A DNA stretch of 52,914 nucleotides from a virus (Duplodnaviria; Caudoviricetes). A program made the translations under genes and the position numbers. The DNA lies in IMG/VR virus record IMGVR_UViG_3300009506_000044, positions 1-52,914 of that record. The stretch is one strand, 5' to 3'. The notes beneath the pieces are model-generated. The model ran no database searches and was not told the origin of the DNA. It saw only the letters and a program-made list of their open reading frames with translations. This document shows, one piece after another, positions 3,214 through 52,181 of the stretch (within the stretch, counting starts at the first letter, position 1; every line of letters begins with the position of its first letter).

Positions 3214-3347
3214 TCGATCTTCAGTGCTGTTAAAAGCGCTGTTGATCGACTGCAAGTAGCGGCATTTTTGCATGTTGTTATGTATATGCCATTTGTGTTT
3301 TGTTCTATATGTTGTGATTTTTATGGGACCAATTAATATATATTGGA

Positions 3348-3573
3348 GTCCAAGACGAACTATAGTGTGATGGTAACCTGATGAGTAATGAAGAAATCGT
3401 TGAACAGAATTTAGTCCAAGATGAACTATAGTGTGATGGTAACCCCCAACAAACTGCCTGTGTGTGATCAAGGCCAGCCAAGTCCAAGACGAACTATAGT
3501 GTGATGGTAACTATACTGAAGACGATTACATGGAAATACATAGTGTTCCGTCCAAGATGAACTATAGTGTGAT
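3348..3573 (+). CRISPR. Mini CRISPR array, 4 repeats / 3 spacers
   Basis: 30-bp repeat GTCCAAGAYGAACTATAGTGTGATGGTAAC at 3348-3377, 3414-3443 and 3482-3511, truncated copy at 3550-3573. Unique spacers of 36, 38 and 38 bp. Confidence 0.95.
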
Positions 3574-3590
3574 TTGATGGAAAGAGTAAA

Positions 3591-4895
3591 TTGAAGTGCA
3601 TTAAATTCAGAATAATAAAGGATCGTGAGTTTCCTCGGCTGTTTACCCTGCTTGACAAGTATTCTTACGCGATTAGCAGGGTTAAAAACCTCGGAATGAG
3701 CAAGTTGTTCGTGCAGCATCATACCGAAATTATTCCTTTTTTAGATTCCGAGAAAGATAAAAATTTGCGAAAGGTGTTTCTCAGGGATCGTAAAAATGCG
3801 ATATCAAGGGATATATATGCAGACGCTGGAAATCTATACCCGTGGATGGTTTCTCATATTAAAGAGATGGCCGCGAAAGAGGTATGTGACAAATTCAAAT
3901 CGGACTGCAAGGAGGTGTGCTACTCGCTTAAAAAGTCTCTCGCATCATTTCGTCGGGATGGTTCTTTTTCTATGAGGTCGCGCAATTGCAAGTTTGTCCG
4001 CGTCGCGGACGATATTTTCCTTGAGACGAATCTGTTGTCAAAATCAACAAAGGCGCTGTCTGAGGTATGCGAAAAACCAAATAAAGACGAGGAATTTCCA
4101 AAAAAATTCAAACTTTTGTTGGCAACGCGAAACTTGAAAAATGGCCATCGTCAGGACTTAAAACGCATATTGTCAGGTGAATCAAAATTCGGTTCTCCTC
4201 GTTTCGTCAAGTCTAAAAACGGATACGATTTGATTGTACCGTTCGAACAACAAAAGGCGGAGGCGCAAACAGGCCTAACGATTGGTATAGACCTTGGTGT
4301 TAAATGCGCGTTTTATGGCGCGTCTGTTGACTCTTGGAAGCGCATCAAGCCTGAAGACACACATGAAATATACGCTAAAGCGATGCAATTCAAGAAGCGG
4401 CGCAAACAATATCAAAAGCAAGCAAAAGTTTCAAATCGAAGTGGACGTGGTAGGCGCCATGTGTTGAGACCGTTAGAAAAACTTAGCACATCCGAACGTT
4501 ATTTTAGAGAGACGAAGTACAAGCAATGGGTGCGAATGATCATTGATTTTTGCTTAAATTATGGATTTTCGGTAATCGTCTTGGAAGACCTTAATAATCT
4601 AAAAAAAGACAACGCCTTAATTGCTAAATGGGCGCCGTTTAAGTTTCAAGAGTTGTTGATTTTAAAGGCATCTGAGTTCGGAATAGATGTTTTAGTGATA
4701 AATCCTGCGGATTCCTCCAGGCGTTGCTCATGGTGTGGATATACAGCGGCAGAAAACCGTGTTTCGCGTGATTGGTTTCTATGTAAGCAATGCGGAAAAA
4801 AGGCCGATGCAGACCACAATGCCGCAAGAAATTTGAGTTCGCCGCTTTTTTATCAGGGAAGAATGTCTTCTGGTGTTTGCGAGGAAATATTCTAG
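3591..4895 (+). CDS. cas12f: Cas12f (type V-F, TnpB-related) RNA-guided nuclease
   Basis: RuvC I IGIDLG, RuvC II VLEDL, Zn ribbon CSWCG...CKQCG, RuvC III DADHNAARN; 434 aa; adjacent to the array and tracr-like RNA. Confidence 0.85.
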   Translation: MKCIKFRIIKDREFPRLFTLLDKYSYAISRVKNLGMSKLFVQHHTEIIPFLDSEKDKNLRKVFLRDRKNAISRDIYADAGNLYPWMVSHIKEMAAKEVCDKFKSDCKEVCYSLKKSLASFRRDGSFSMRSRNCKFVRVADDIFLETNLLSKSTKALSEVCEKPNKDEEFPKKFKLLLATRNLKNGHRQDLKRILSGESKFGSPRFVKSKNGYDLIVPFEQQKAEAQTGLTIGIDLGVKCAFYGASVDSWKRIKPEDTHEIYAKAMQFKKRRKQYQKQAKVSNRSGRGRRHVLRPLEKLSTSERYFRETKYKQWVRMIIDFCLNYGFSVIVLEDLNNLKKDNALIAKWAPFKFQELLILKASEFGIDVLVINPADSSRRCSWCGYTAAENRVSRDWFLCKQCGKKADADHNAARNLSSPLFYQGRMSSGVCEEIF

Positions 4896-12420: not shown

Positions 12421-12847
12421 GACGACAATCAAATTCGAAAAAGGCAAGATCCTCAAACGTGTCGGAGACGCGAATTACCGGTCTCTTGGACAGGCCGGCG
12501 CTTCTGTACGCAAAATAGCTCAATACTCAATTCGAACACAACCCGCCCGCAAGAAAAAAACAAAACGACGTCGCAAACGCAAAATAAAATATTCCCTGCC
12601 AGGAAAACCTCCCTTTACGCGCGGGCAAAAACGTCTGCGCAAATCCATTATTTACAGCGTCAACCGACAAAAAGAGCACGTCAGAATCGGTCCATCTCAC
12701 GATATTATCGGCGAGGTCGGCGCATTGCATGAGGTCGGCGGAATTTTCTACGGGCGTCATTATACGCCGCGTCCGTATATGGCGCCGGCGCTGAAACAGG
12801 CCATCCCGAGACTCCCTAAATTATGGAGGGCCGCGTTCCGTGGATAG
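12407..12847 (+). CDS. Tail completion / HK97 gp10-like protein
   Basis: Basic protein; LHEVGG...PRPYMAPAL motif. Confidence 0.65.
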   Translation: MVKIETTIKFEKGKILKRVGDANYRSLGQAGASVRKIAQYSIRTQPARKKKTKRRRKRKIKYSLPGKPPFTRGQKRLRKSIIYSVNRQKEHVRIGPSHDIIGEVGALHEVGGIFYGRHYTPRPYMAPALKQAIPRLPKLWRAAFRG

Positions 12848-28004: not shown

Positions 28005-28169
28005 TTACGCCACCAGCGCCGCGACCACCGCGCCGCCATCCTCGGGATCGATCCCACGGTCAGCGCACCAGCGCTGATAATCCGCCTCCATGCAGGCGGA
28101 CATGCAGTTCATCCCGTGGCAGTACGGGCAGCGACCATCATGGTCGCAAAATTGGTCTTGACTGATCAT
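28005..28169 (-). CDS. 54-aa Cys-rich protein (not in ORF track)
   Basis: MISQDQFCDHDGRCPYCHGMNCMSAC...; RBS AAGGAG. Confidence 0.6.
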   Translation of the reverse strand: MISQDQFCDHDGRCPYCHGMNCMSACMEADYQRWCADRGIDPEDGGAVVAALVA

Positions 28170-28249
28170 GATCTACTCCTTATAATATCATTAGAAACAT
28201 TCGAACATCAAGGCCCTGGTTCGCGCCGGGGCCTTACGCTATTACCAGG

Positions 28250-28378
28250 TTAGATCTTGACCTGTTTCTGCGGAACCTGAATCTCGTAGCCTTCGCTTTC
28301 GATCCGGCCCAAAAAACCCTGGATGTCGTCCTTCTCGCCGAACAGGGTCGTCATGATTTTTTCGATCAGCTTTTTCAT
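28250..28378 (-). CDS. 42-aa first early protein (not in ORF track)
   Basis: MKKLIEKIMTTLFGEKDDIQGFLGRIESEGYEIQVPQKQVKI; RBS AAGGAG; directly below the promoter. Confidence 0.6.
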   Translation of the reverse strand: MKKLIEKIMTTLFGEKDDIQGFLGRIESEGYEIQVPQKQVKI

Positions 28379-28423
28379 CTCGTTCTCCTTTTTGGTTTAG
28401 GTTTTTGTTTTCAACGCTATTAT

Positions 28424-28452
28424 ATTATAGCACAAACTGAGCCAAAAGTCAA
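28424..28452 (-). promoter_or_regulatory. Strong sigma70 early promoter
   Basis: TTGACT-17 bp-TATAAT with extended -10 TG. Confidence 0.85.
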
Positions 28453-31965: not shown

Positions 31966-32235
31966 TCAATCTCGGTTGATCCCCGTAGCGTAGAGTTTAC
32001 CGGCCGGGGGGTTGAGTTTGCCGACCCGCCCCCCGAGCCTTTCGTACGGGACGCGTGCATTGCATACGGCCCGCTGCAATTGTACCACAATCGAAAAGGA
32101 GGTCAAGAAATCATGGGCGACATGATTTTTTATCACTGCCTTTCGCCGTGATTTTGATGGACTGGCGGGGGAAACGCGATCCCCCGCATCTCTCTTTCCA
32201 TCAAAATCAAAAAATCAAAAATTGAAAGGCAAAAA

Positions 32236-34428
32236 ATGTGCGATTATGAAAGTTTTTTGGAATCTAAGGTTATAAAGGCGCCATCGAGCGGTATAGACGT
32301 CACTCCAGACAATCCTGCTCTATACGATTTTCAACGCGCCATAACCGCGTGGGCGCTGAGAAAAGGCCGGGCTGCAATATTTGCTGACTGCGGTCTCGGA
32401 AAAACGATAATGCAGTTGTGCTGGGCGCGTGAAGTTCACCGGCACACCGATAGAGAAGTGTTGATACTGGCACCTCTCGCTGTTGCTGCTCAGACCGTCG
32501 AAGAGGGACGCAAGTTCGGCATAGAGGTTACATACCGCCGCAAAGGATCCGTTGGCGGAATAACGATAACTAACTACGAAATGCTAAAGAATTTCGACCC
32601 GGAATTATACTCCGGCATTGTCCTGGACGAAAGCTCTATCCTGAAAAGTTTCTCTGGTAAGATACGCAATTTCATCATAGACAGCTTCAAAATAACACCA
32701 TACAGGCTTGCATGCACTGCCACTCCGGCTCCTAACGATCTAATGGAACTCGCCAATCATGCAGAGTTCCTTGGAATCATGAGAAGGGAGGAAATGCTCT
32801 CCACATTTTTTTTCCATGATTCTGGAAATACCTCTAAATGGGTAATTAAGGGGCATGCTGAATCAGATTTTTGGAAATGGGTGTGCTCTTGGGCTGTCAT
32901 GCTGAATTATCCATCAGATATTGGATTCAACGCTTCTGGATTTGAGTTGCCAGAGCTGAGAATGCACGAGGAAATCGTTTCGGTTGAAGAATGGGGGAAC
33001 TACCTTTTCGCTATGGAAGCACAATCCTTGCAGGACCGCATAAAAGAACGGCGGCGCACGGTGGCCGCCAGGGTGGAAAAGGCAGCAGAAATATTATCGA
33101 GATTCAATGGCGATCCCGCCATTGTCTGGTGCAATTTGAATATGGAATCATCGGGAGTGAAAAAGCGCTCTGGATGTACCGAGATCGTTGGCAGCGAGAA
33201 GGCGGAAGTGAAAGCAAAAAAAATGCTCGACTTCTCAGCAGGAAAGATAAAAAAACTGGTCACTAAACCTAGCATTGCTGGGTTCGGAATGAACTGGCAG
33301 CATTGCAACAATGTAATTTTTTTGGGGCTGTCAGACAGTTACGAACAGTTTTATCAGGCGCTTAGAAGGTGCTGGAGATTCGGACAGAAAAAACCAGTCG
33401 ATGTCTATATCGTGATTGCTGAAACGGAGGGGGAAGTCCTTGCGAACATAAAGCGCAAGGAGCAACAGGCAAAAGAAATGCGACAGGAAATGGTGAAAAA
33501 CATGCAGGATATTACCAAGCGCGAACTAGGGCATAGCGCAGAGGACATAGAGGTTTACGATCCCGAATCGACATCTGGTAGCGGCTGGACTGTCCATAAC
33601 GGGGACTGCGTAGAGATAATGCGGACAATTGAATCAGAGGCTGTCGGGTATTCGATATTTTCGCCACCGTTTTTGAGCCTGTATAGTTACTCTGACAGCA
33701 ATCGAGACTTCGGAAATTCTAAGACGGATGGTGAATTCTACGAGCATTTTCGCTTTTTTGCGGACGAACTGTACCGTGTTATCATGCCTGGCCGCAATTT
33801 CTCTTTTCATGTGGCCAATGTTCCATGCGCAAAATGGCTACATGGCTATATCGGGCTGAGGGATTTTCGTGGAGAGTGTATCAGACTTTTCCAGGACGCA
33901 GGTTTCATATTTCACAGTGAGGTCTGTATTTGGAAAGATCCGGTTACTGCGATGCAGCGAACAAAGGCGCTCGGTCTTCTGTACAAGCAGCTCAAGAAGG
34001 ACAGCGCTATGTCTCGTCAGGGAATTCCTGATTACCTGATCACGATGAAGAAATGGGGCGATAACCCCGACGCAATCGAACAAAAGCCTGAAAACTTCCC
34101 GCTTTCCAAGTGGCAGAAGTACGCTAGTCCGGTATGGACAGATGTAAACCAGAGTAGAACACTGCAATACAGGAATGCCCGCGATGAAAAAGACGAAAAA
34201 CACATATGCCCTCTACAGTTAGATGTAATTGAACGAGGACTGGAATTGTGGAGCAGGCCTGGAGATTTGGTACTATCTCCGTTCGCTGGTATCGGTTCTG
34301 AAGGCTATGTGGCCGTGTCGATGGGACGCGAATTCGTCGGTATAGAACTGAAAAAATCATATTACCGTGTGGCATGTCAAAACTTGGTATCTGCGGAGAA
34401 CTGCTATCAACAGCAGTTTTTGTTTTAG
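32236..34428 (+). CDS. SF2 (SNF2-like) helicase fused to N4/N6 DNA methyltransferase
   Basis: DCGLGKT, LDESS, TATP, QALRRCWRFGQ; methyltransferase motifs FSPPF and SPFAGIGSEG. Confidence 0.9.
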   Translation: MCDYESFLESKVIKAPSSGIDVTPDNPALYDFQRAITAWALRKGRAAIFADCGLGKTIMQLCWAREVHRHTDREVLILAPLAVAAQTVEEGRKFGIEVTYRRKGSVGGITITNYEMLKNFDPELYSGIVLDESSILKSFSGKIRNFIIDSFKITPYRLACTATPAPNDLMELANHAEFLGIMRREEMLSTFFFHDSGNTSKWVIKGHAESDFWKWVCSWAVMLNYPSDIGFNASGFELPELRMHEEIVSVEEWGNYLFAMEAQSLQDRIKERRRTVAARVEKAAEILSRFNGDPAIVWCNLNMESSGVKKRSGCTEIVGSEKAEVKAKKMLDFSAGKIKKLVTKPSIAGFGMNWQHCNNVIFLGLSDSYEQFYQALRRCWRFGQKKPVDVYIVIAETEGEVLANIKRKEQQAKEMRQEMVKNMQDITKRELGHSAEDIEVYDPESTSGSGWTVHNGDCVEIMRTIESEAVGYSIFSPPFLSLYSYSDSNRDFGNSKTDGEFYEHFRFFADELYRVIMPGRNFSFHVANVPCAKWLHGYIGLRDFRGECIRLFQDAGFIFHSEVCIWKDPVTAMQRTKALGLLYKQLKKDSAMSRQGIPDYLITMKKWGDNPDAIEQKPENFPLSKWQKYASPVWTDVNQSRTLQYRNARDEKDEKHICPLQLDVIERGLELWSRPGDLVLSPFAGIGSEGYVAVSMGREFVGIELKKSYYRVACQNLVSAENCYQQQFLF

Positions 34429-34436: not shown

Positions 34437-35798
34437 ATGAAAATAGACATACCCATCTTCGACCTGAGACACCCAAAAAGTATCCCCGGTAGGAAAAACG
34501 TTGATATTATGCCGGGTGGAGAGGTCTACATTTCGAATCGATTTGGAGAGATCACGGTTAAGTATCTCTCCAGATCATCGGTTATAAGCCCAGAAGACAT
34601 GAAAACGTTCTGGGCTGTATTCAACCTTACCAAGTGCGCTGAAAAAAAAGGTGAATACTACAGGATACCCATAAGAGAGGTTGTTGCCGTAAGAGGACTA
34701 AAGCCGAAAGGTGATATTTTTAAAAGGATAAGGCAATCTCTCATAAAATTGAGATTCGTAACGCTTTCCTCTAACAGGGAAGTCTGGACAGAGCTTGGAA
34801 AGCGTGAACAGTTTTCTCTTAACGGAATGATATCCGATATCATCTTCGATATTACACACCTTTTCATGGGTGGACAAAAGGAATATTTTGACATTTCTTT
34901 TGGTGCCATTTACAGAGAAGCCATTTTGCATCCAGAGAAGAGAGTTGCCATACCTGGGCAGATTTTGAAATTATCAGGCATGGATTTTAATCTGGCAGTA
35001 TTTCTGGCCGGGCAATCCCTTAAAGAAGAGAAGAAACATTTTAATACAATGGATCTTCTAACAGAATCTCTTTTCCATCACAGCGAGACAGCCAGGCATC
35101 AACCTTGGAAGTCTAAAAGGATATACAACAGCCTAGAAAGATTAAAGGTCAAAAAAATAATAAAGGGTTTCAAAAAAACGAAAAACAATGTTGTTTTGAT
35201 CACCTTTTTTACAGGGAAAAAACCCGTGACCTTGAAGTACGAAACCCGTGACCTTGAAGTACGAACCCGTGACCTTGAAGTACGAACCCGTGACCTTGAA
35301 GTACGGAGCGATCACGAGCGGTCAATCATACCAACGACTTGTGAAGGCAAAAATCCGTCTAACTCTTTATCTAACTCCTTCCTTCCTAAAGAAGGAAGCT
35401 TGAAGGAAGGAAGGAAGGAAAAGAGAGAGTTGTTGTCTGAATTCAACTTGTACCCTCCGATTTTGGAAAAAGCTCTTGAATCGGATTTCACAGATCTTGT
35501 TAGTCTTATTTGCTATTCGAGACATCACTCACCAGACAATCCTGCAAAATTAATCGCATACCGAATACAGCACAATCTTCCTGTTACTGACCACGAATTG
35601 AAGTCCATCCAAGATATGCATGCCGAGAAGAAAGCGGCAAACTACACCCGCCTCAAAAAGAAACTTGCGATGTCAAGGATGAACAATGGTGGATTGTCCT
35701 GGAAAGGGCAACCGGTCAAACGCATATCGGACGCTGGAATTACAACGGACGACGGTCTTTTTTTCTGGGGGGACATTCGAACGGAGGACCTTGCATGA
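34437..35798 (+). CDS. Replication initiator (Rep)
   Basis: Upstream of dnaB; contains internal iterons; basic wHTH-like N-terminus. Confidence 0.7.
   Translation: MKIDIPIFDLRHPKSIPGRKNVDIMPGGEVYISNRFGEITVKYLSRSSVISPEDMKTFWAVFNLTKCAEKKGEYYRIPIREVVAVRGLKPKGDIFKRIRQSLIKLRFVTLSSNREVWTELGKREQFSLNGMISDIIFDITHLFMGGQKEYFDISFGAIYREAILHPEKRVAIPGQILKLSGMDFNLAVFLAGQSLKEEKKHFNTMDLLTESLFHHSETARHQPWKSKRIYNSLERLKVKKIIKGFKKTKNNVVLITFFTGKKPVTLKYETRDLEVRTRDLEVRTRDLEVRSDHERSIIPTTCEGKNPSNSLSNSFLPKEGSLKEGRKEKRELLSEFNLYPPILEKALESDFTDLVSLICYSRHHSPDNPAKLIAYRIQHNLPVTDHELKSIQDMHAEKKAANYTRLKKKLAMSRMNNGGLSWKGQPVKRISDAGITTDDGLFFWGDIRTEDLA
35221..35305 (+). repeat. Four 21-bp iterons, probable origin of replication
   Basis: AACCCGTGACCTTGAAGTACG x4 (35221, 35243, 35264, 35285) inside rep, followed by a strand-asymmetric GAAG tract. 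Confidence 0.85.
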
Positions 35799-37075
35799 AC
35801 GATAACGAATACGCCGTTTTGGGGTCAATTCTGAAGAACCCCACGGCAGATATTTCTTCTCTTACAGACAAGGATTTCCCAAGCAAAGACGGTCGTCTGG
35901 TATGGCAGGCCATCGCGGCAATGGATAGAGCAGGAAAGCCCATCGATGATTTGGTGCTGTTGCGAGATTATATCCGTAGTCACGGCAACGGCACGTCACT
36001 TGAGGCCCAGACGTGGGTGGTAGAAGCGATCACCTCAATACACGCCGGTGCGTGTTATGAGGATTACATCCGAATTTTGAAAAACGATTCGCTTACCAGG
36101 GCAATCGTCACGCTATCACGGGAAATCCAAGCAGCGGAAAAAGGCGGCACGAAGGGGAAAGACCTCCTCGATCTGGTCGAACGGTCGGTATCTCAACTGG
36201 CACTTGAACCTACCGGTCGCAAATCCTCACACATAAGCGTCGTCCTTAGAGACATGTTTGACAGCGTCGACAAGGAGAAGGGATATCCGACAGGGTTTCA
36301 CGCCATCGACGACATGATAACCGGCCTGGCTCCCATGCAACTGGTAATAATTGCGGGCCGCCCGAGCATGGGGAAGACGTCCTTCGCCCTGAATGTCGTT
36401 GAAAACCTTGCGATGATCCACGGTGTTCCGGTGATGGTGTTCTCGCTGGAGATGTCCCAAAAACAGGTCGGCATGGTGATGGCCTGTAGTCGTGCCGGGA
36501 TCTCCGTGAAACGGTTCCGGCGGCAGGATATCGATGAAAACGAGTACTCTCTGGCATCTACGGCATGCGGTGAACTATACAATGCCCCGATCACTATTTG
36601 CGATGACCCGGTGAGTCTGTCGGATATCAGGCGGCAGGTGCGCGGATGGTGCCGCGACCATGATGGCGGCGTTGTGCTGATAGACTACCTGCAACTTATC
36701 CGACCGGATAGCGGACGTCGTGATAACCGGACGCAGGAAATAGGCAGGATTTCCCGTGGGCTCAAGGGCCTGGCGAAACAGTTCGAGATGCCCGTTATAG
36801 CCCTATCGCAGCTAAACCGCAGCGTGGAGAGTCGCGATAATCACCGGCCGCGTATGAGTGACCTGCGTGATTCCGGGGAAGTCGAGCAGGATGCCGACGT
36901 GATCATGATGCTATACCGTGACGAATATTACAATTCGGAAACGGATTACCCAGGAACCGCAGAGGTCATCGTGGCCAAGCAGCGGGTCGGTGACACCGGG
37001 TCAATAAGGCTCGGATTTGCGAAAGAGTGTATGCGATTCGAGAATCCGGCAGTCCATTGCGCGAGGATAGACTGA
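35795..37075 (+). CDS. dnaB: Replicative DNA helicase
   Basis: GRPSMGKT, FSLEM, IDYLQL, LSQLNR, DLRDSGEVEQDAD. Confidence 0.96.
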   Translation: MNDNEYAVLGSILKNPTADISSLTDKDFPSKDGRLVWQAIAAMDRAGKPIDDLVLLRDYIRSHGNGTSLEAQTWVVEAITSIHAGACYEDYIRILKNDSLTRAIVTLSREIQAAEKGGTKGKDLLDLVERSVSQLALEPTGRKSSHISVVLRDMFDSVDKEKGYPTGFHAIDDMITGLAPMQLVIIAGRPSMGKTSFALNVVENLAMIHGVPVMVFSLEMSQKQVGMVMACSRAGISVKRFRRQDIDENEYSLASTACGELYNAPITICDDPVSLSDIRRQVRGWCRDHDGGVVLIDYLQLIRPDSGRRDNRTQEIGRISRGLKGLAKQFEMPVIALSQLNRSVESRDNHRPRMSDLRDSGEVEQDADVIMMLYRDEYYNSETDYPGTAEVIVAKQRVGDTGSIRLGFAKECMRFENPAVHCARID

Positions 37076-37076: not shown

Positions 37077-37361
37077 ATGACGCCGATACAGGAGATAATA
37101 CCTACGGTGATGGAGCGCGTCAACACACGCTCCGTCATCTGGCGTCTGCTGGTGATCCACAAGCGGATCGCGGCGGGCGGATACCCGAACGCTAACACGC
37201 TGGCGCGTGATCTGGAGTACAGCCCACGGACGATCCAGCGCGACATCGAGTGGGCCAGGGACATGCTCGGGGCGCCGGTGCGGTACGACCAGTGGCGGCG
37301 CGGTTACTACTACGACAACCCCAGATGGCTGGAGGGAGTATTATGCACGCTACACACTTGA
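37077..37361 (+). CDS. Stand-alone winged HTH (like the N-terminus of WYL regulators)
   Basis: YPNANTLARDLEYSPRTIQRDIE...GYYY. Confidence 0.75.
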   Translation: MTPIQEIIPTVMERVNTRSVIWRLLVIHKRIAAGGYPNANTLARDLEYSPRTIQRDIEWARDMLGAPVRYDQWRRGYYYDNPRWLEGVLCTLHT

Positions 37362-38089
37362 TCGGACGTCATCTCAAAACGACCGGCGCGGCGGACATGC
37401 CGGAACGGTGTTGCCTTTGTGAATCGGAAGGCATCCAGGGGTTCCGCCGCAAGCAGGTCATCGCGTCCGGGTTCATGGACGTCGGCTACCTGCGTCCGAC
37501 GGATTGGATCTGCAGGTACTGCGCCGCGTGCCTCGGGTATCAGCAGGGCCGCACCGGCTTGGTGCGGAATTTCTCCTTCGTGGCGGGGGAAAACGCGCTG
37601 CAGTTTTTGAAGCGTGAGGAGATTTGGCACGTCATGACCGATCCGCCGGAACCGCCTTTCGTCCTGGGGGTAACGTACTCCCACAAAAAACACATCTCGT
37701 TCAAGGCGGCCGTGAATCTCAGCCGCACGCATTTCTCCGCATCGACGGAGGCCGGACATGTCCAGGTGAACCCGGACGGCGATGCCACGCTGAAAGGCAC
37801 TATGCAGCGGTGGTACACGATCTGCAAGCCGACAAAGACAGAACCGACGTGGTTCACGAAGGCGCACGTACTGCAAGGCTGCGACAATTTCAAGCGCATC
37901 GAGGAATACGGCACGGACCAGTATTTCGCAGACGATGCGATTATCCGCCCGTATCGGCACACTGCTCTCCTGGAGCTGTATGCCTATGCGCTCAATAAGG
38001 GACCGGTTCCGGAGCAGGCCCCGGAACCGGAACCAGAGGGAAAAACAGAATTTTCGACACGCAAAAACGGCCAGATGGCCATGTTTTAG
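37343..38089 (+). CDS. csf1: Type IV Cas8-like subunit Csf1
   Basis: CCLC...ICRYCAAC Zn motif; PPEPPFV...KKH...A.VN; precedes csf2; RBS GGAGGGAG. Confidence 0.75.
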   Translation: MHATHLIGRHLKTTGAADMPERCCLCESEGIQGFRRKQVIASGFMDVGYLRPTDWICRYCAACLGYQQGRTGLVRNFSFVAGENALQFLKREEIWHVMTDPPEPPFVLGVTYSHKKHISFKAAVNLSRTHFSASTEAGHVQVNPDGDATLKGTMQRWYTICKPTKTEPTWFTKAHVLQGCDNFKRIEEYGTDQYFADDAIIRPYRHTALLELYAYALNKGPVPEQAPEPEPEGKTEFSTRKNGQMAMF

Positions 38090-38098
38090 GGAGATTTT

Positions 38099-39310
38099 AT
38101 GATCAAGATTGAGTACACTTTTCGGACCAAAGGACCGTTACACACGGGGTCGGACACCAATGCCGGGACGCTGCGGAGTTTGCGTCGGCAGAAATGTATC
38201 CTGGCCGACCCGGTGCAGTACGAAACGAAATTGACCGAACAATCCAGGCGGGACGCCGTGTGCAATATCGCCCTGGCGGTGTGGTTCGCTATCCCAAAGG
38301 ACGGGATCAAGGGCAAGCGGATGATGGGGATCTGGGACGAATTCGCCAACAAACTGACCGCGGCGGCCAGGGCTTCCAACAAATACCAGTTTCTAGAAAA
38401 CATTTGCAGGTCCTGGGGCATCGAGTCGATCACCTACCCGGCGCTGTTGCGATCCATCGACGCCCTGTCGGATTGGGAGTTGCTGGATACCGTGCGCAAC
38501 GAATCCATGTACGTGGTCCTGAAGACTCGCGCCATGCGAGACGAATCGAAACAGGATGAGGTTGGCTGGGAAAAATACCTGACGGATCTGGAAGTCACCA
38601 CCACCGATCAGCGCCCGGTGGAACGCCTAGAAGACATGATTCCCTGTATCAGCGGAAATTCGTTCCGGGGACGCCTACGGCGCCTGGCAATGCACGATTT
38701 TTGTCAGCGCATCGGTCTGAAGAAAATGGATAAGCGGGTGTACCACACGCTGTTTACCGGCGGGTTCCTGGACCAGAGCACGCAGAATGAGGACTTCGAG
38801 AAGATGGAGAAGTTTGTCTCAATGTGTCCGATGCTGGGCGTTCTGGGCGCTGCCATCGGAAACATGACGATTGAGGGCGACCTGAAAATGGGATGGGCCT
38901 ATCCGTTCTGCCGGGAACGCGGCACCGGCCAGCAGTCGTACTGGAACTATATCGACACGGTATTCCAGACGCGCCACGACAGCTCTAAAACCGAAAAACA
39001 GATCGAGTTGACCGGAGACGACCAGACCCAACAGATGAAGTACGAGTATGAAGCGTTCGCGGATGGCACGCCGTTCGAGCACCGTATTGCCTGCGTCTCG
39101 ACGGATGAGTTGATCATCGCGGCGTTCTGGCACCTCATCAGCCTGTGGAAGGCAAATCCATACATTGGCGGGATGGGCGCCGTGGGCGCCGGAGAGTTGG
39201 TCCTGGATTTGAAAGAACCCGCGAAGTCGCTGTCGAAGCCGTACCTGAAGGCCATCATGGAGGATGGAGCAGAAGAAATGCGCGAGTTCTGGGGAACGGT
39301 GACGATATGA
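38099..39310 (+). CDS. csf2: Type IV Cas7 (Csf2) with inserted Cas11-like helical domain
   Basis: PLHTG, IPCISGNSFRGRLRR, LFTGG, LGVLG, Gly-rich loop IGGMGAVGAG; ~140-aa helical insert. Confidence 0.85.
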   Translation: MIKIEYTFRTKGPLHTGSDTNAGTLRSLRRQKCILADPVQYETKLTEQSRRDAVCNIALAVWFAIPKDGIKGKRMMGIWDEFANKLTAAARASNKYQFLENICRSWGIESITYPALLRSIDALSDWELLDTVRNESMYVVLKTRAMRDESKQDEVGWEKYLTDLEVTTTDQRPVERLEDMIPCISGNSFRGRLRRLAMHDFCQRIGLKKMDKRVYHTLFTGGFLDQSTQNEDFEKMEKFVSMCPMLGVLGAAIGNMTIEGDLKMGWAYPFCRERGTGQQSYWNYIDTVFQTRHDSSKTEKQIELTGDDQTQQMKYEYEAFADGTPFEHRIACVSTDELIIAAFWHLISLWKANPYIGGMGAVGAGELVLDLKEPAKSLSKPYLKAIMEDGAEEMREFWGTVTI

Positions 39311-39975
39311 GATCATGGAAGCTGCACGTGCGTTTCTATTCGCCGTGCGTGTTTTACCACCGTCCGCTGTTGGATGCGCTGCTTTCATACGCGCTGGAGC
39401 GGAGACATCAGCCGTACCGCTGCATGTATATCGCCCCGAAATGGCGCAACCGTGATCCGGTAGGCATCCCGCATCTTCAGGATGTCGTGCAATGCTTCGA
39501 TGATATCCCGTTGACCACGCAGATGCGGGCGGTTGGACCGGAGTTGCCGTACCTGGATTCGTGGAAAAAACGGTTCCACTCGAAAGATTTTCGACTTATT
39601 CGCTGGGGACGAGGATCACACAAAATCAATACGGCCAGCGGGAAATACCGGTCGTACAATATGCCGCTGCCGGCGAAAACAATCAATGCGGCCTGGTTCG
39701 GATTCGTCGGAGACGGGCCTGCAGTATTGGATTTGATGCGGTCGCATCTGTTTGCCATCGGGAAAAAAGCGAGTGATGGTTTCGGCATCGTGGACGAATA
39801 CCGTCTCGAAGAGGCTGACCTGGACGCCGTTGACATCCTCGCGCTGCGGCCGGTGCCGTTGCGTGTGATCGCGCAGAAAAACCTGCCGCTGTCAGGCGAG
39901 GCAAAACAGGTGGCCTACAAGCCGCCATATTGGGATAATTGCAATGTTGAAGCATGCGTTTGTCCTGCGCTATAA
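39307..39975 (+). CDS. csf3: Type IV Cas5 (Csf3)
   Basis: LDALL, IGKKASDGFG, RPVP, YKPPYW; ATGA overlap with csf2. Confidence 0.8.
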   Translation: MRSWKLHVRFYSPCVFYHRPLLDALLSYALERRHQPYRCMYIAPKWRNRDPVGIPHLQDVVQCFDDIPLTTQMRAVGPELPYLDSWKKRFHSKDFRLIRWGRGSHKINTASGKYRSYNMPLPAKTINAAWFGFVGDGPAVLDLMRSHLFAIGKKASDGFGIVDEYRLEEADLDAVDILALRPVPLRVIAQKNLPLSGEAKQVAYKPPYWDNCNVEACVCPAL

Positions 39976-40657
39976 GAGCAGGGCGTTCCAGCAGAAAATC
40001 GAGAAAGCCGAGCGCCAGATTGCGGCAGCGTTCGAGGCTCACTTCGGATGGCACGTTGCGTTTTCCGGCGGGAAAGACTCCACGGTGGTGTTGGATCTGG
40101 TACGCCAGTACAAGCCTGACATCACGGCGATATGGTCTGACGACGAATGGTGGCTTCCGGAGACGGGAGAATACATGGACCGGATGAGAAACGCAGGGGT
40201 GAACGTCCACCAGATCCAGACGCGGGCGACGCATGCCGAGTGGTTCAGCACGAACCAGGGCGCCGAGTGGTCAGGCGTACCAGAGTACGCCGCTTCGATC
40301 GGATCACGTGGATGCTTCCTGGGGCTGCGGGCGCAGGAAAACGGATACCGCCGTAGGTATCTCCGCCGGTATGGACTGTTACACTACGCGAAATGTAACC
40401 AGCAGTGGCAGTGCAACCCTATCGGGTGGTGGAAATTCGATGACGTCTGGGCGTATATCCACGGGCGCGAGCTGGATTACAACCGCGCTTACGATCGCCT
40501 GGCGGAAATCGGCATTGATGTCCACCACCAGCGGATTGGACCACTGGCATGCGAGCGGGCCGTCGGATATGGTCAGCTTGCAATACTCAAAATGGGATGG
40601 CCGGAACTGTTTTCACGGTTCGCAGCGGCACATCCGGAGGCAAACCAATATGTTTAG
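39944..40657 (+). CDS. PAPS reductase-like (CysH-like) protein of type IV-B
   Basis: FSGGKDS PP-loop, GLRAQE, PIGWW..DDVWAYI, YDRL. Confidence 0.88.
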   Translation: MLKHAFVLRYKSRAFQQKIEKAERQIAAAFEAHFGWHVAFSGGKDSTVVLDLVRQYKPDITAIWSDDEWWLPETGEYMDRMRNAGVNVHQIQTRATHAEWFSTNQGAEWSGVPEYAASIGSRGCFLGLRAQENGYRRRYLRRYGLLHYAKCNQQWQCNPIGWWKFDDVWAYIHGRELDYNRAYDRLAEIGIDVHHQRIGPLACERAVGYGQLAILKMGWPELFSRFAAAHPEANQYV

Positions 40658-40708: not shown

Positions 40709-41730
40709 GTGAGCGGGAAGGTGATCTCGATGCGTGCATGCCGCACGGTATGCTGCCCGCACTGCGGAATTGCGTTAACCTGCCATTTTCCGCTTAACAA
40801 GGAGTTGGGCATGTCATCCTGCCCGACGTGCAGAGGGAAGATCCAAATACGCAATATGAGCGGTCGGTTGCTGGTATCGCCCGTGAAGTTCTCTTTTATA
40901 CGAGGTGCGTCAGTGCATATTTTGCGTGGCGCACAGATGGAATGGGGGTGGTGAGTGAGCGCGCGCCTGAAGCTCGCGGAGATCCGTGGCCACCTTCGCG
41001 ATCTGCGCACGCCGCAGGCGGACCACATTGCCGGGGAGGTCTTGCGTTGGATCGGCTTGCCTGCGGATACGCTGATCAGGGGAGACCTGCGTGACGTGAT
41101 TCTGCGAGCGTTGGAGGATTACAGCCGAAAGGAGGTGCACCGTGGGTGAGCGCAGGCTATCGAGGCGCGATTACTTCGCGGGGGTGATCCTCGCGGAACT
41201 GTTGCGCGGCGATGTGCGACGTGACGAGACATACGGCCCGGAGTGGTACGCGCATGTGTGGCGCATGGCAGATGAAATGCTGGCCGCCGAGCCGGGCGTG
41301 GAGATCGGCGCGTATTTTTCGCAGGTGAGCGCCGAGCGGTTGCAGGAGATGCGGACATTGCAGGGGGACATTGCGGTAGACATCACGCGTGCGGTGCTCT
41401 CCGTGATTTCACCTCCGGAGCTGCGCGCGTCGTGCGTGCGGAAGGAGGTGGCGAGTGAGTGAGCGTGACGAAGAACTGGCGGCGTTCGACCACTGGCTAG
41501 CGGGATACATGCGCGAGGTGCAGGGGCCGGCCACGTTCGCGGTGGCTCAGATGCGGGAAGCCTGGCTCGCAGCGCGGGAACATTGCGATGATGCGCTCGC
41601 CGAGTGGATCGCGAAGGCCCTGACGCGCGCTCATTTCAGGGGATCGATGGTGCTGTCCGGCGTCTACGAGGATGCCAAGGAGAATTACATGCGTGTCGTG
41701 CGTGAGGCGATGCGGGAACGGGAACACTGA
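40709..41730 (+). other. Run of small hypothetical genes (40709-40954, 40955-41149, 41142-41462, 41455-41730)
   Basis: Overlapping GTG starts with GGAGG-type RBS; the first has CPHC/CPTC. Confidence 0.55.
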
Positions 41731-41812
41731 CAACAGTGTACCTCCGCCCGCTGGGGAACCGGTCCCCGGCGGGCATCCAAACGGGGGTACACGCAACAAA
41801 CGGGGGTACACG

Positions 41813-42169
41813 ATGGATTTAGCGTTGAAATTGCGGCACGACGTAGCCGCATGGAACATCTGGCGGGAGCAGTTCCCCCAGGTGCAGATCGACCTGGCGG
41901 GCGCGAACCTGGAGAGCGCGTACCTGGCGGGCGCTGACCTGGAGAGCGCTGACCTGCGGTGCGCGAACCTGGAAAGCGCTGACCTGGCGGGCGCGTACCT
42001 GGAGAGCGCTGACCTGCGGGGCGCTGACCTGCGGGGCGCGAATCTGCGGGGCGCGTCCCTGTGGGGCGCGTCCCTGGCGGGCGCCATTTTATGCGACGCG
42101 AATCTGGACGGTGCGATAGTGTCGTACCGGGGAAAATGCGTGCGGATCGTTTTCGAGGAATCACGTTAA
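41813..42169 (+). CDS. Pentapeptide repeat protein
   Basis: A(D/N/Y)Lxx repeats after WNIWRE. Confidence 0.9.
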   Translation: MDLALKLRHDVAAWNIWREQFPQVQIDLAGANLESAYLAGADLESADLRCANLESADLAGAYLESADLRGADLRGANLRGASLWGASLAGAILCDANLDGAIVSYRGKCVRIVFEESR

Positions 42170-46972: not shown

Positions 46973-47044
46973 GGCCAGGTGGCGCAACGGTAGCGCGTCC
47001 GCCTTGTAAGCGGAGGGTTGCGGGTTCGAGCCCCGCCCTGGCCT
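46973..47044 (+). tRNA. tRNA with anticodon UGU (Thr), atypical acceptor, no encoded CCA
   Basis: Cloverleaf: GGCCAGG/CCTGGCC, D stem GCGC, TCCGC-CTTGTAA-GCGGA, GCGGG-TTCGAGC-CCCGC. Confidence 0.85.
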
Positions 47045-48503: not shown

Positions 48504-49355
48504 ATGACAAAACCAACCATAAGCGCGGCCATGATCGCGCGCAATGAGGAGCCGTACATATTCGACTGCCTGCAATCGATTGCAGAGGTAGCGGACGAAA
48601 TCGTCCTGGTGGATACCGGCAGCACCGACCGCACCGCAGAGATGGCAGCGGACCTGGGGGCGTCGGTATACCATTTCGAGTGGGATAACGATTATGCCGC
48701 GGCGCGTGATGAGTCGTTGCGGCACGTCACCGGTGACTGGATTTTCCAGATTGATCCGGACGAACGGCTGCGCCCTGCGTCTGTGCCGATTCTGCTGGAG
48801 GCCGTCAAAAAGACGGACCTCCTGCATTTCAATATTTCCGTACACAACCAGGGGAAACCTGATCCGGAGCCGGATGAAATTCCGCGATTGTTCCGCCGTG
48901 TCCCCGGCATGCACTATACGAGGCCGTACCACGAAACGGTGTGCCCGTTTTTCGAGAGGTATCTGAGCGAAAATCCTGGTTGGGTGCGGGGGTTCGTTGA
49001 GGGGATCGTCCTGGACCACGTCGGACATGCGACGCGTAGCCAGGATGAGATGACACAGAAAACGCTGAGAGCGATATACATTATGGAGCGTTGGCTACAG
49101 AAAAACCCCGACGATCTGTACATCGCCCAAAAATTGGTGGTGTCGTACGCGATGATACAGCGCACTCACCCGATGGTGATGCGCGATATCCGTAGCAACC
49201 AGGGAAATATTCTGCTGAACGTGATGGGGCGACGCCAGGAGGCGTGGGCCGCGTATGCTGGGGCGCTAACCTGGGATATTGAATATCGAAGGCAACTGCA
49301 AGAACTGGAGAAAAAACGTGGACATCGTGATACCATGCTACCGGCCTGGCAATGA
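48504..49355 (+). CDS. GT2 glycosyltransferase
   Basis: MIARNEE, VDTGSTDRT, IDPDE. Confidence 0.9.
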   Translation: MTKPTISAAMIARNEEPYIFDCLQSIAEVADEIVLVDTGSTDRTAEMAADLGASVYHFEWDNDYAAARDESLRHVTGDWIFQIDPDERLRPASVPILLEAVKKTDLLHFNISVHNQGKPDPEPDEIPRLFRRVPGMHYTRPYHETVCPFFERYLSENPGWVRGFVEGIVLDHVGHATRSQDEMTQKTLRAIYIMERWLQKNPDDLYIAQKLVVSYAMIQRTHPMVMRDIRSNQGNILLNVMGRRQEAWAAYAGALTWDIEYRRQLQELEKKRGHRDTMLPAWQ

Positions 49356-50988
49356 CCTGTCGAGGCTGCTGGCGGAAATCGTCCAGAAAACAGAGCAACC
49401 ATATCGGCTGCATCTGATCGCACATCGCGATAGCGCGGCAGTCAATCGTAATCTGGGTTTGCGGTGTAGCAATGGCGATATCGTGATCATGCTGGACGAT
49501 GATATTGAGAGTTTGCCGCTCTATTGGAATCGTATTTTGAGGATTCTGCTCGACGAGGACCAGAGCGTTTTGGCCGTATCGGCGCGGCTACTGCAAAAAA
49601 ACGGCGAGCCGGGGAAAAACACTGCCAACAATACGGACGTCAACCGTGATTATGTCGAGGTGAGCATGATCCCGACGGCGTGTTGCGCCTTCAGGGCGCC
49701 AAAAAACGGCCTGAAATTTGACGAAAACTTTAAAGTGGCCGGGTGGGAAGATACCGATTTTTTCACTGCCATGAAGGCCGAAAATCCGCAGGGCAAATTC
49801 GTTATAGACAATCGGTGCCAGGTGGTACACCGCAACGAGGAAAAGGGAGGCGGCGGTGCCGGGAATTTGTATAACCGTGACGTTTTCATGCACAAATGGT
49901 ACTCTCCGTCTCGGTTCAATAATCTCGCCGGAATAACGAAACGTGGGTGCATTGACGTTGGTCATCCGTGTAACATAGACTGCAAAATGTGCTATCACCG
50001 GCATGAGGACAGGTCTAAGCGGCGTTTTCTTCCGAAACAGGAAATCATGGCGCGGATGTTGCGAGACAAGGAACAGCTTGATCTGGAATGCATCGATTTT
50101 ACCGGAGGTGAGCCGACACTGCACCCGGACATGCCAGAAATCGTCGCATACGGCCGTCAGATCGGACTGCCGGTGTGCATAATATCGCACGGGCAGTGGC
50201 GCAATATGGAGCGGATGCGAGAGATTTTCGATGCCGGGCCGCTGGAGTTTCTCATGTCGATTCACGGTGTAGCAGAGGACCACGACGCACTGGTCAATCC
50301 AGGCGCGTATGAGCATATCATGCGGTCTATCGATATGCTGCAAGACGCCGACGCCGGTATCCCTTGGCGCGCAAACTGTGTAGTTACAAGGCAGAACCAC
50401 AAAAATCTCGACACCTACGCGATAGAACTCATAAACATGGCGTATCCGCCTGATAACGTTAATTTTATTGTGTTCAACCCTTTTGCTGGTTGGTCACAAA
50501 TGAAGGACATCGATTGCCAAGAAAAGCACTCGATTTTGGCTCCAAATATTGCAAGGGCAATAAATATTCTAAGCTCTGTTGCCATATGGTGCAATGTTAG
50601 GTATTTCCCTATGTGCCAGTTGCCGGGGCAGGAGAAACATGTTACGTGTTTCCCGCAAATCGTCTACGATCCGCTGGAGTGGGACGTGCGGTCATATTGC
50701 AATCTAAAACCGGAAGTGATCCAAGATTGCTACGATATCGGCCGCCGTGCAGGCGTGTGGGGTGAGACAGATCGCCATATTTTTTTCAATACGTGGTCGA
50801 TTCACAATTCGCATAATCTGTACCGCAAGCCGCCACAGTGCGTAAAATGCAGGAATTTCTTGATATGCGACGGCCTTGCGGTGCAATACCGTGACCGGTA
50901 TGGGGCCGGCGAGTTGCGTCCGCAGGATGGTGATTTGATCAGAGATCCAATATACTACCGCAGAGGTACACCGGGGGTGCAATCGTGA
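49318..50988 (+). CDS. GT2 - radical SAM fusion
   Basis: DIVIPCY, LDDD, GWEDTD; CNIDCKMC, FTGGEPTL, C-terminal CVKC..CDG. Confidence 0.88.
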   Translation: MDIVIPCYRPGNDLSRLLAEIVQKTEQPYRLHLIAHRDSAAVNRNLGLRCSNGDIVIMLDDDIESLPLYWNRILRILLDEDQSVLAVSARLLQKNGEPGKNTANNTDVNRDYVEVSMIPTACCAFRAPKNGLKFDENFKVAGWEDTDFFTAMKAENPQGKFVIDNRCQVVHRNEEKGGGGAGNLYNRDVFMHKWYSPSRFNNLAGITKRGCIDVGHPCNIDCKMCYHRHEDRSKRRFLPKQEIMARMLRDKEQLDLECIDFTGGEPTLHPDMPEIVAYGRQIGLPVCIISHGQWRNMERMREIFDAGPLEFLMSIHGVAEDHDALVNPGAYEHIMRSIDMLQDADAGIPWRANCVVTRQNHKNLDTYAIELINMAYPPDNVNFIVFNPFAGWSQMKDIDCQEKHSILAPNIARAINILSSVAIWCNVRYFPMCQLPGQEKHVTCFPQIVYDPLEWDVRSYCNLKPEVIQDCYDIGRRAGVWGETDRHIFFNTWSIHNSHNLYRKPPQCVKCRNFLICDGLAVQYRDRYGAGELRPQDGDLIRDPIYYRRGTPGVQS

Positions 50989-52181
50989 AAATTCTTCTGG
51001 GGCCGGGCCTGCATGACCCGAAGGGTAATGAGGCGTTCCTGGTGGCGGCGATGAAGCGGCATGCAAACGTGCGCACGTTCGATGCGCACGGTATTCACCA
51101 GCAGCCGGACGATTGGACGCCGGATGCGGTTATCGTCCGCGACGCGGAATATTATCCGATAATGCCGGGGATAGAAAATGTGGAATGCCCGATAATCGGA
51201 TTGGTCGGTGATTACAACCTGACACTGCCTCGCATGCTGCCGATTATGGGGATGTTCGACCATATTTTTTGTGATCTGCGAGGCGTTGAGCTGTTTTCGA
51301 AGCTGGGGCACCGCAATGTCGATTATTTTTGCCTGTACGGGTACGATCCGGGCCTGCACCGCGATTACGGCATGCCGAAAAATAATGACGTCGTATTCGT
51401 CGGAAATCTCAATTTTGCGGTCCAGCAGGACCGGGCGCGTTATCTGCACGACCTGCTGAAGCTGCGAGATCGGTACAAAATCGTGATAGCGTCGAATGTC
51501 TATGGCGAGGACTATGCGCGCCTGTTGAATTCTGCGCGAGTCGTGGCAAATTTTCCGGTGCGCGGTGAGCTTAACATGCGTTTTTTTGAGGCATACGGCT
51601 GCGGGGCGGTGTGTATGCAGCCTCTGAGCCAGGAGTTGATAGATTCTGGGTTTGATGACTATGAGGATTATACGCCTATCAAAGATGGTGATTGCGAATC
51701 CGGATTGAGATATGCGATTCGGTATTCTCGCAGCGATGCCAGCCGCGAGAAATTCGAGGAATTCACCTATGACCGCCAGGCGAAAGAGTTGATATCGAAT
51801 ATCGATGCCCTGCTGCCGACACTGGCCCCGAAGGCGCGGAAATTTCGCATTATGCCGGACGTGGAAAAAAACCGTCGCTGGGCGCAGTATCACGCGCCAT
51901 CGCATGATACACCACCGTGGGATAATCGTCTTTCCCTATTCGATCCGCGTTTAGTACGCTACCAGAAAGATATCGTGGATAACGTCGGTGACATCCCGAA
52001 TTTCAATTTCGATCAGTGGGCCTGGTGGATTGATCTTTTGCTGGCAAACGGGTATAATAATGCAGCGCAAGAGTTTATGGCAGAGAAGGAAGATATGCTA
52101 CGTTGCTTCGCTGGATTCGGGGCGATAAAAGAGAAGCTGCGAAAACGATTGAATGTTGAGGCTTATGGTTTTTGCCTTTAA
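50985..52181 (+). CDS. GT-B glycosyltransferase (CgeB-like)
   Basis: DVVFVGN, YGEDYARLLN, NMRFFEAYGCG. Confidence 0.85.
   Translation: MKILLGPGLHDPKGNEAFLVAAMKRHANVRTFDAHGIHQQPDDWTPDAVIVRDAEYYPIMPGIENVECPIIGLVGDYNLTLPRMLPIMGMFDHIFCDLRGVELFSKLGHRNVDYFCLYGYDPGLHRDYGMPKNNDVVFVGNLNFAVQQDRARYLHDLLKLRDRYKIVIASNVYGEDYARLLNSARVVANFPVRGELNMRFFEAYGCGAVCMQPLSQELIDSGFDDYEDYTPIKDGDCESGLRYAIRYSRSDASREKFEEFTYDRQAKELISNIDALLPTLAPKARKFRIMPDVEKNRRWAQYHAPSHDTPPWDNRLSLFDPRLVRYQKDIVDNVGDIPNFNFDQWAWWIDLLLANGYNNAAQEFMAEKEDMLRCFAGFGAIKEKLRKRLNVEAYGFCL

Follow-up and report, generated by a model that had tools for sequence, protein, structure and literature searches.

Type IV-B is the least understood subtype of the class 1 CRISPR (short palindromic repeats that are clustered and regularly interspaced) systems. 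Here we describe a type IV-B locus at positions 37077 to 40657 of the IMG/VR virus record IMGVR_UViG_3300009506_000044, which was analyzed as a whole (the window, 52,914 bp; all positions are counted on it). A first-pass annotation made from the DNA letters had placed here a type IV-B effector module without an array, with a CysH-like gene and with dnaB immediately before it. Our analysis supports this identification: the locus almost certainly holds an intact type IV-B CRISPR-Cas effector set, which consists of Csf1, a Csf2 with a built-in Cas11, Csf3 and a CysH-like protein and which a lambda-like phage carries, as a mobile accessory cassette, in its early operon on the replication side. What the annotation gave as established about type IV-B agrees with the portions of PMC7038947 and PMC8175902 that bear on it.

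Gene content of the cassette

All five annotated genes, in the order wHTH-csf1-csf2-csf3-cysH-like, are present on the plus strand and tightly coupled after dnaB. The small winged helix-turn-helix (wHTH) protein of 94 amino acids (aa; 37077..37361, +), whose ATG lies 1 nt after the DnaB stop, matches HTH_11 at 2.4e-4, below the Pfam cut-off, and the N-terminal HTH of a PADLOC WYL regulator at 5.9e-8. The csf1 gene (37343..38089, +) encodes a Cas8-like large subunit of 248 aa that matches PADLOC Csf1_0_IV at 1.3e-21 and TIGR03114 at 3.1e-13 (49.9 bits, cut-off 140) and carries a CxxC...CxxC zinc-ribbon-like motif, of which C23 is invariant in 36 sequences; its ATG at 37343 is served by a GGAGGGAG ribosome-binding site, and the gene overlaps that of the wHTH protein by 19 nt. 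After a gap of 9 nt follows csf2 (38099..39310, +), encoding a Cas7 backbone with an inserted Cas11 domain (403 aa; Csf2_0_IV at 1.6e-43 over residues 167-399; TIGR03115 at 35.6 bits, cut-off 130). The csf3 gene (39307..39975, +) overlaps csf2 at an ATGA and encodes a Cas5 protein of 222 aa (Csf3_0_IV at 1.1e-26; TIGR03116 at 8.4e-12, below cut-off), and it overlaps by 32 nt the gene for the CysH-like PP-loop ATP pyrophosphatase (39944..40657, +; 237 aa), which matches PF01507 at 1.2e-16, above cut-off.

The annotation had also recorded the absence of cas6, dinG and an adjacent array, and a six-frame search of the record together with an array scan upheld this. Across the whole 52,914-bp record, six-frame translation gave no match to Cas6 (PF01881), the DinG-type Helicase_C_2 (PF13307), Cas1 (PF01867) or the RecD-type UvrD_C_2 (PF13538), the type IV-specific Csf5 profiles not having been run on every open reading frame (ORF); the only CRISPR-like array of the record, at 3347-3580, lies about 33 kb from the IV-B genes, beside a Cas12f gene. 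The locus thus shows every feature by which type IV-B is recognized: Csf1, Csf2, Csf3, Cas11 and an adjacent cysH-like gene, with no helicase, Cas6, adaptation genes or adjacent array. Assignment to type IV-A was rejected, DinG, Cas6/Csf5 and an associated array not being found in the window, as was assignment to type IV-C, the large subunit being a Csf1 of 248 aa and not a Cas10-like protein with an HD domain, although matches to Cas10-like or HD proteins were not specifically sought. A complex of Csf1, Csf3 and the CysH-like protein predicted with alignments scored 0.01 against a mark of 0.32, which speaks neither for nor against binding.

A Cas11 domain inside Csf2

In canonical type IV-B systems, as described in PMC7038947 and PMC8175902, cas11 is a separate gene. 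The first-pass gene list was right in its five genes but overlooked Cas11, which is present as a domain inside Csf2: this small-subunit domain occupies residues about 44-170 (38228..38608, +), between a strand at 30-43 and a strand at 172-182, and matches Cas11_1_IV at 6.4e-14 over residues 56-152. An AlphaFold2 (AF2) model of Csf2 (predicted local distance difference test, pLDDT, 89.2; predicted template modeling score, pTM, 0.83) places in order strands 2-10 and 30-43, a helical domain at 47-163, strand 172-182 and the RAMP (repeat-associated mysterious protein) core. In VIA-align comparisons the model gives Z 17.8 with the type IV-A Csf2 chain 8rc3_B (root-mean-square deviation, rmsd, 4.3; 241 aligned) and Z 16.0 with the type IV-B Csf2 chain 7jhy_a (rmsd 3.9; 215 aligned), over model residues 2..398. 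Because the alignments to solved Csf2 chains span the model from residue 1 or 2 to about 400, with 209-244 aligned positions, the N-terminal strands are assigned to the Cas7 core and the helical domain is read as an insertion rather than an N-terminal fusion; the model thus seats Cas11 in the beta2-beta3 hairpin of Csf2.

In related loci where the two parts are split, the stand-alone ORFs of 114-126 aa between csf1 and csf2 are type IV Cas11 in four of four tested (8.4e-29 to 4e-20), and they match residues 42-158 of the window Csf2, aligning end to end with the insert. Modeled by itself in AF2, the insert reaches a pLDDT of 85.8, and its top Foldseek row in the PDB is 7jhy_g from the type IV-B complex (TM-score 0.70/0.63, rmsd 3.1 Å over 116 columns, probability 0.99); the Foldseek E-value being only 0.48, this match rests on the TM-score and on the gap to the remaining listed rows, whose query TM-score is 0.34 at most. 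A profile of the insert found nothing significant among PDB sequences, where the best Cas11-named row was Cas11c 11fs_N (E 0.83).

Distribution and phylogeny of the fused form

The fused architecture is conserved beyond the window. Homologue clusters that cover at least 90% of the fused protein number 74 out of 81 and come from several sources, and 16 of 45 related IMG/VR loci are fused, with Csf2 proteins of 394-434 aa; most of the remaining loci have csf1, then an ORF of 114-139 aa, then a csf2 of about 300 aa. A Csf2 tree was built by quick search from 39 distinct rows with the insert columns removed and with rows under 250 aa and identical duplicates omitted; in this unrooted tree a single branch, with a support of 99 in the Shimodaira-Hasegawa-like approximate likelihood ratio test (SH-aLRT), sets the 16 fused rows apart from the others, so that one change suffices for the trait. 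The sister pair of the fused rows, L017 and L021, has a separate cas11 of 156 aa that overlaps csf2. With a profile of the Cas11 domain, 541 library proteins were matched at E ≤0.001, and among the best 150 of these matches 32 proteins are 380 aa long or longer and carry the domain at about 45-165, 117 are no longer than 175 aa, and one has 224 aa.

The fused form occurs in metagenomic viral contigs and in seven contigs of metagenome-assembled genomes (MAGs), the latter being all seven loci recovered from 185,579 species genomes. It had no match in 50,697 GenBank phage records and was not found among 72,556 plasmids, of which 43 records match the Csf2 core only and none covers at least 80% of the query. 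The literature searched, which did not extend to supplementary data, contained no description of a Cas11-in-Cas7 architecture, and the insertion lineage appears to be undescribed so far.

The CysH-like protein

Over 46 loci including that of the window (many are cut by contig ends, and the window csf3 was missed by the gene caller), the core set is made up of Csf2 in 46, Csf1 in 44, the CysH-like protein in 38 and Csf3 in 36; csf3 and cysH are both present in 32 loci, and in 26 of these the two genes are no more than 150 nt apart. The CysH-like protein of the window carries the SGGxDS loop of the PP-loop ATP pyrophosphatases as SGGKDS at residues 41-46, with G43 and K44 identical in 34 of 34 relatives and S41, D45 and S46 in 97%; G127, E132, R136, P159 and Y183 are likewise identical in all 34, and R129 and R197 in 97%. 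No alignment column of these relatives has at least 50% Cys, and the window's own cysteines at residues 124, 151, 157 and 203 are common to 5, 1, 16 and 1 of them, respectively. Solved PAPS (3'-phosphoadenosine-5'-phosphosulfate) reductases have a degenerate loop at the position aligned to SGGKDS. With an SGGKDS loop that is invariant or nearly so and without any conserved cysteine, the sequence identifies the protein as an ATP pyrophosphatase rather than a reductase. This agrees, at the level of sequence, with the published view of CasCysH as an ATP alpha-hydrolase or adenylating enzyme and not a reductase or DndC-like sulfur transferase, set out in PMC8175902 as a PP-motif/AMPylation proposal, with the catalytic Cys described as absent.

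PADLOC models matched by the protein include BrxP (6.9e-15), DndC (1.6e-8, residues 14-53) and SspD (4.1e-6). A bona fide PAPS or adenosine-5'-phosphosulfate (APS) reductase (CysH) was rejected, there being no conserved catalytic cysteine and the CysH-model matches falling far below cut-offs; a phosphorothioation enzyme of DndC/SspD type was rejected as well, the matches being partial only, no cysteine being conserved and the annotated genes including no dnd or ssp neighbors.

A second PAPS_reduct protein, with a DUF3440 domain and 375-423 aa long, is found in or beside the IV-B operon at 8 of 46 loci: inside the operon in L008, L011, L016 and L032, and flanking it in L002, L017, L020 and L021. 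It is usually accompanied by a small neighbor belonging to one cluster, of which three of four members tested matched ParB_N (PF02195); the pair presumably resembles IbrA/IbrB. The window does not have this pair, and these occurrences hint at a link between type IV-B and the PAPS_reduct-DUF3440/ParB_N phage gene pair.

Proposed mechanism

The explanation that we favor, to which as a whole we give a probability of about 0.5, is as follows. Csf1 and Csf3 would cap a helical Csf2 filament wrapping a small RNA encoded away from the cassette; because every Csf2 carries a Cas11 domain, Cas11 would be supplied at a fixed 1:1 ratio, forming a minor filament in which each Csf2 brings its own Cas11. This ribonucleoprotein (RNP) would bind complementary nucleic acid without cutting it, and the CysH-like PP-loop enzyme would spend ATP to adenylate, and so activate, a group on the bound nucleic acid or on a partner. 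The core of the mechanism, an RNP that binds its complementary target without cleavage and brings in an adenylating enzyme, is proposed by analogy and is the more tentative part, with a chance that we put somewhat short of even. The phage would most likely use such a complex early in infection, for counter-defense or for competition with other mobile elements, and not for replication itself.

Filaments of type IV-B Csf2 and Cas11 are reported to assemble on heterogeneous RNA of about 55-60 nt, and in the solved complex Cas11 is described as occluded from the bound RNA and not touching it (PMC7937560). One Cas11 per Cas7 protomer, in a position that does not touch the RNA, argues that target engagement matters and not RNA binding alone; combined with a near-universal enzyme partner, it is hard to explain for a pure RNA sponge.

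Several points weigh against this explanation. The cassette proteins are divergent, since the NCBIfam equivalog models for Csf1, Csf2 and Csf3 match below their cut-offs only. No guide source was identified, there being neither an array nor a Cas6 gene beside the cassette, and the CysH-like enzyme has no known substrate. In bulk the Cas11 insert carries almost no net charge (-2 in the window; -5 to +7 in 27 sequences), so its sequence alone shows no basic face for target binding, and the charge does not help to choose between a guided RNP and a sponge. A heterologously expressed IV-B complex is reported to have bound RNA non-specifically (PMC7937560), a finding equally compatible with a sponge and with a guided complex. 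Finally, target binding, adenylation and the biological role, that is, all the functional claims, are argued from analogy.

The best-surviving alternative, which we nevertheless consider unlikely, is an anti-CRISPR (Acr) role: early in infection the complex would mop up CRISPR RNAs (crRNAs) of the host or small guide RNAs of other kinds, disarming the host's RNA-guided defense without binding any target. Such sequestration is a published hypothesis for type IV-B on plasmids and viruses, and the heterogeneous RNA bound by the heterologous complex of PMC7937560 speaks for it. The early operon of the window also contains accessory or anti-defense-like genes, namely those for an SNF2-methylase fusion, a pentapeptide-repeat protein and AntA, and a relative from the fused clade, L006, has Cas6b and no array in a genome of 153.5 kb, which fits processing of host pre-crRNA. 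The sponge nevertheless leaves unexplained both the CysH-like partner present at 38 of 46 loci and the retention in every protomer of a Cas11 that is reported to be occluded from the bound RNA; the authors of PMC7038947, moreover, judged so complex an Acr unlikely and noted negative correlations of type IV-B with other CRISPR systems of the host.

Guide sources and the co-resident Cas12f

Most relatives have neither an array nor Cas6, which was matched (PF01881) in 2 of 45 records. In the fused-type operon L006 (record G006, 8683-12559), a Cas6b gene (2.6e-33) lies directly upstream of csf1 and overlaps its start; the genome, 153.5 kb long, 100% complete and with terminal repeats, showed no CRISPR array in the scans, and Cas6b without an array suggests a Cas6 whose substrate RNA comes from another source, such as the arrays of the host. 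The split-type locus L037 (2-5743) has in order cas12f (cut by the contig end), csf1, cas11, csf2, cas6 (PF01881 at 8.7e-7), csf3 and cysH, and any array of this locus would lie past the contig end. In L001, the closest relative of the window (Csf2 62% identical), an array of 11 repeats at 10416-11107, with a palindromic repeat of 32 nt and spacers of 33-34 nt, lies about 950 nt downstream of cysH. It runs to within 58 nt of the contig end, and 8 further viral contigs, all lacking IV-B genes, carry the identical repeat, in several cases at a contig end; for its contig-end position and the recurrence of its repeat in those 8 contigs, it was rejected as too uncertain to prove that the clade uses arrays, and it could be either an assembly join or a mini-array of the phage served by the Cas proteins of the host.

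The array of the window is a type V-F mini CRISPR array (3347..3580, +) of four repeats, the last degenerate, and three spacers of 34-36 nt. Directly downstream lies the gene for a V-F/U3-like Cas12f of 434 aa (3591..4895, +; PADLOC Cas12f PDLC01699 at 1.2e-74), array and gene being placed between the terminase and portal genes. The protein matches chain 8j3r_A, deposited as an IS605 OrfB-domain protein, at 1.3e-34, with Cas12f-named chains next in the same table, and in our own reading of the alignment it appears to retain the three RuvC acidic motifs (GIDLGV, LEDL and ADADHN). The guanine-plus-cytosine (GC) content is 0.417 in the cas12f region, 0.528 in the phage and 0.55-0.59 in the four cas/cysH genes; the cas12f region looks recently acquired, and the gap between 0.417 and 0.55-0.59 suggests that it and the IV-B genes were acquired separately. 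Neither the repeat core nor any of the three type V spacers, searched by its first 25 bases, had an exact match in IMG/VR, and a blastn-short search with these spacers and 10 spacers of L001 against the DNA set gave only chance-level matches of 13-22 nt.

The first-pass annotation had seen in this array an opportunity to test guide sharing, in which transcripts of the three-spacer V-F array would also load the IV-B complex. The co-residence is real, the two systems standing on one 52.9-kb record, and there are parallels in L037, with its cas12f directly upstream of csf1, and in an Actinomyces plasmid region reported to encode type IV-B together with a V-B3 variant and a mini array (PMC12669027). 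It recurs, however, in only 2 of 45 related viral records, as judged by a Cas12f/TnpB-like match, so guide sharing has little comparative support; four other Cas12f-like viral loci, from an IMG/VR pattern scan that gave five loci and is not a census, have no IV-B genes. The distance of about 33 kb, the GC contrast and the lack of a Cas6 match in the window also speak against it, and we regard it as improbable.

Genomic context and the replication link

The record is listed as linear, CheckV puts its completeness at an estimated 84%, and it encodes lambda-like structural proteins (gpA-type large terminase, lambda-family portal, S49 protease, E-type major capsid and tape-measure protein), followed later in the record by an AntA antirepressor and RecT. 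A marine-sediment metagenome run is the single sequencing run that contains the full stretch, and it may be its own source; no RNA run is listed among those that contain it. Because the nearest cellular matches to the window Csf2 are MAG contigs of Syntrophobacteraceae and Desulfobacteraceae (57-59% identity), the host is probably a member of the Desulfobacterota.

Genes run in one direction from about 32.2 kb to about 42 kb, after a strong terminator-like hairpin at 32165-32187 and with no convincing further one before about 42068. The first gene of this string encodes the fusion of an SNF2-type helicase to an N6/N4 DNA methyltransferase (730 aa, 32236-34428). It is followed by the gene for a 453-aa protein (34437..35798, +) with no Pfam or PHROG family match, whose position before DnaB and whose iterons suggest a replication initiator; four 21-bp direct repeats (35221-35305, a tandem repeat of 4 copies with 98% match) lie inside the gene, in what we take to be an arrangement reminiscent of the origin iterons within the lambda O gene. 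The DnaB replicative helicase (35795..37075, +; TIGR00665 at 2.8e-117, 392 bits, above cut-off) directly precedes the cassette.

The first-pass annotation had read this arrangement as a possible link to replication. On such a reading, the initiator and DnaB would be joined by the complex and the CysH-like enzyme in working on phage DNA as it replicates. In its favor, only 1 nt separates DnaB from the cassette, the two belong to one co-directional string in which no terminator-like site is convincing between 32187 and about 42068, and the PAPS-reductase family includes DNA-modification enzymes, in keeping with the DndC and SspD matches. The comparison with relatives does not bear the link out. 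Of 45 related viral loci, only 2 have a DnaB homologue no more than 10 kb away from the module; conversely, none of 33 loci around DnaB relatives (best-segment identity at most 38%) has IV-B genes. In relatives the cassette adjoins packaging or tail genes, its neighbors being terminase (TerL), portal, capsid, tape-measure or methylase genes, and the cysteine needed for sulfur chemistry of the DndC/CysH type is absent. A function tied to replication is thus, in our estimate, slightly less probable still than guide sharing.

Nor was the wHTH gene borne out as part of the module: it has no homologue in any of 45 related loci, the small ORFs upstream of the cassette in 10 relatives match no HTH family, and a role as conserved component or regulator was therefore ruled out. 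Since the wHTH gene, the DnaB neighborhood and the Cas12f array are not conserved and the neighbors vary, we conclude that the module behaves as a mobile accessory cassette and not as replication machinery, and that its placement in a replication operon is particular to this phage.

That the fused Csf2 is a frameshift or misassembly, or the module a decaying remnant, is very improbable even though all the sequences come from metagenome assemblies, as 74 of 81 homologue clusters, drawn from several sources, and 16 viral loci show the same architecture, both insert junctions are modeled with confidence by AF2, the family-invariant residues and the PP-loop are intact and the ORFs have no internal stops.

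Other features of the record were noted in passing. L111 has a homologue of the SNF2-methylase fusion, 45-53% identical, upstream of its DnaB. In the window, a pentapeptide-repeat protein of 165 aa (41672-42169; PF00805 at 1.4e-37) is encoded by a 15-nt tandem repeat that lies about 1 kb downstream of cysH; proteins of this kind are able to mimic DNA, and an anti-defense role is possible. Two divergent promoter-like sites, each with 11 of 12 consensus positions, stand back to back at 28158-28452 and separate minus-strand genes (26.3-27.7 kb) from the plus-strand early genes, in what may be the lysis/lysogeny switch region. A tRNA-Thr with anticodon TGT was called at 46973-47044 by both ARAGORN and Rfam. 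Near the contig end, at 48504-52181, a GT2 glycosyltransferase, a 569-aa GT2/radical-SAM fusion and a GT1-like protein are encoded in a row that could serve surface-structure or DNA modification.

Implications

The module is real and intact, and it is a virus-borne variant with Cas11 in Cas7; a whole type IV-B lineage lives in tailed phages with Cas11 fused into the backbone protein in this way. A set of four genes with fixed stoichiometry suits structural work, and L006 (Cas6b and no array), L037 (a Cas12f neighbor and Cas6) and L001 (an adjacent array) point to possible origins of the guides.

Sequestration of crRNA and modification of nucleic acid are both published hypotheses for type IV-B. 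Starting from the guided, non-cleaving RNP that we favor, a more far-reaching account can be sketched, though as a complete scenario it is still less likely than a sponge. In the tailed-phage lineage, the Csf2 backbone, made self-sufficient by the Cas11 in its Cas7 loop, would load guides made elsewhere, either RNAs from mini-arrays of phages or host crRNAs, which in some phages a phage-encoded Cas6b would process. Having no nuclease, the complex would be guided to DNA or RNA that matches, among it the protospacers of the phage itself or rival elements; there the target would be modified or masked by the CysH-like adenylating enzyme, so that the whole would be an RNA-guided device for counter-defense or competition rather than for immunity.

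Comparison with known systems

The closest reference is the type IV-B system of Mycobacterium sp. JS623 (PDB 7JHY; PMC7937560, PMC7038947, PMC8175902), which as described there has the same Csf1, Csf2, Csf3 and Cas11 with a cysH-like neighbor and is likewise reported to be without array, Cas6, helicase and adaptation genes. The folds are shared as well, the window Csf2 corresponding to 7jhy_a and its Cas11 domain to 7jhy_g, and the CasCysH of type IV-B is described, like the protein of the window, as having the PP-loop and no catalytic Cys. The window differs in that its Cas11 is a domain in the beta2-beta3 hairpin of Csf2 and has no gene of its own, and in that its carrier is a tailed phage rather than a megaplasmid.

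Viral type IV-B sets with csf1, csf2, csf3, cas11 and a cysH-like gene have been reported for Fuxivirus of Bathyarchaeia (PMC10848311) and for a Methanoperedens virus (10.1101/2023.08.02.551345), with counter-defense as the proposed role. These are archaeal viruses in which cas11 is given as its own gene, whereas the phage of the window probably has a bacterial host and its Cas11 is fused into Csf2. Fuxivirus is also reported to have a mini-array of two repeats next to the IV-B locus, unlike the window cassette, which has no adjacent array. On an Actinomyces conjugative plasmid (PMC12669027), type IV-B and a type V effector with a mini array are described on one mobile element, as in the window; there the Cas12b3 is reported to be nuclease-dead and to lie in the same region as IV-B, whereas the Cas12f of the window seems from its sequence to keep the RuvC motifs and lies about 33 kb away.

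Type IV-A (PDB 8RC3 and 7XG0, among others) provides the best structural matches to Csf2 and has the same Csf1/Csf2/Csf3 core, yet it is described in PMC7038947 as having DinG, Cas6/Csf5 and an array and as lacking Cas11 and cysH, the reverse of the window. The window protein itself is one Cas7 with one Cas11 loop insertion, which should still polymerise with Csf1 and Csf3. In the type III-E and III-I Cas7-11 effectors, several Cas7 domains form a single-protein effector in which Cas7 and Cas11 are covalently joined; the resemblance is one of analogy only and not of membership. Array-less type IV-B with cysH has already been described on plasmids, prophages and archaeal viruses, so that a virus-borne set of this kind is not in itself new; the new part is the phage lineage in which Cas11 is built into Cas7.

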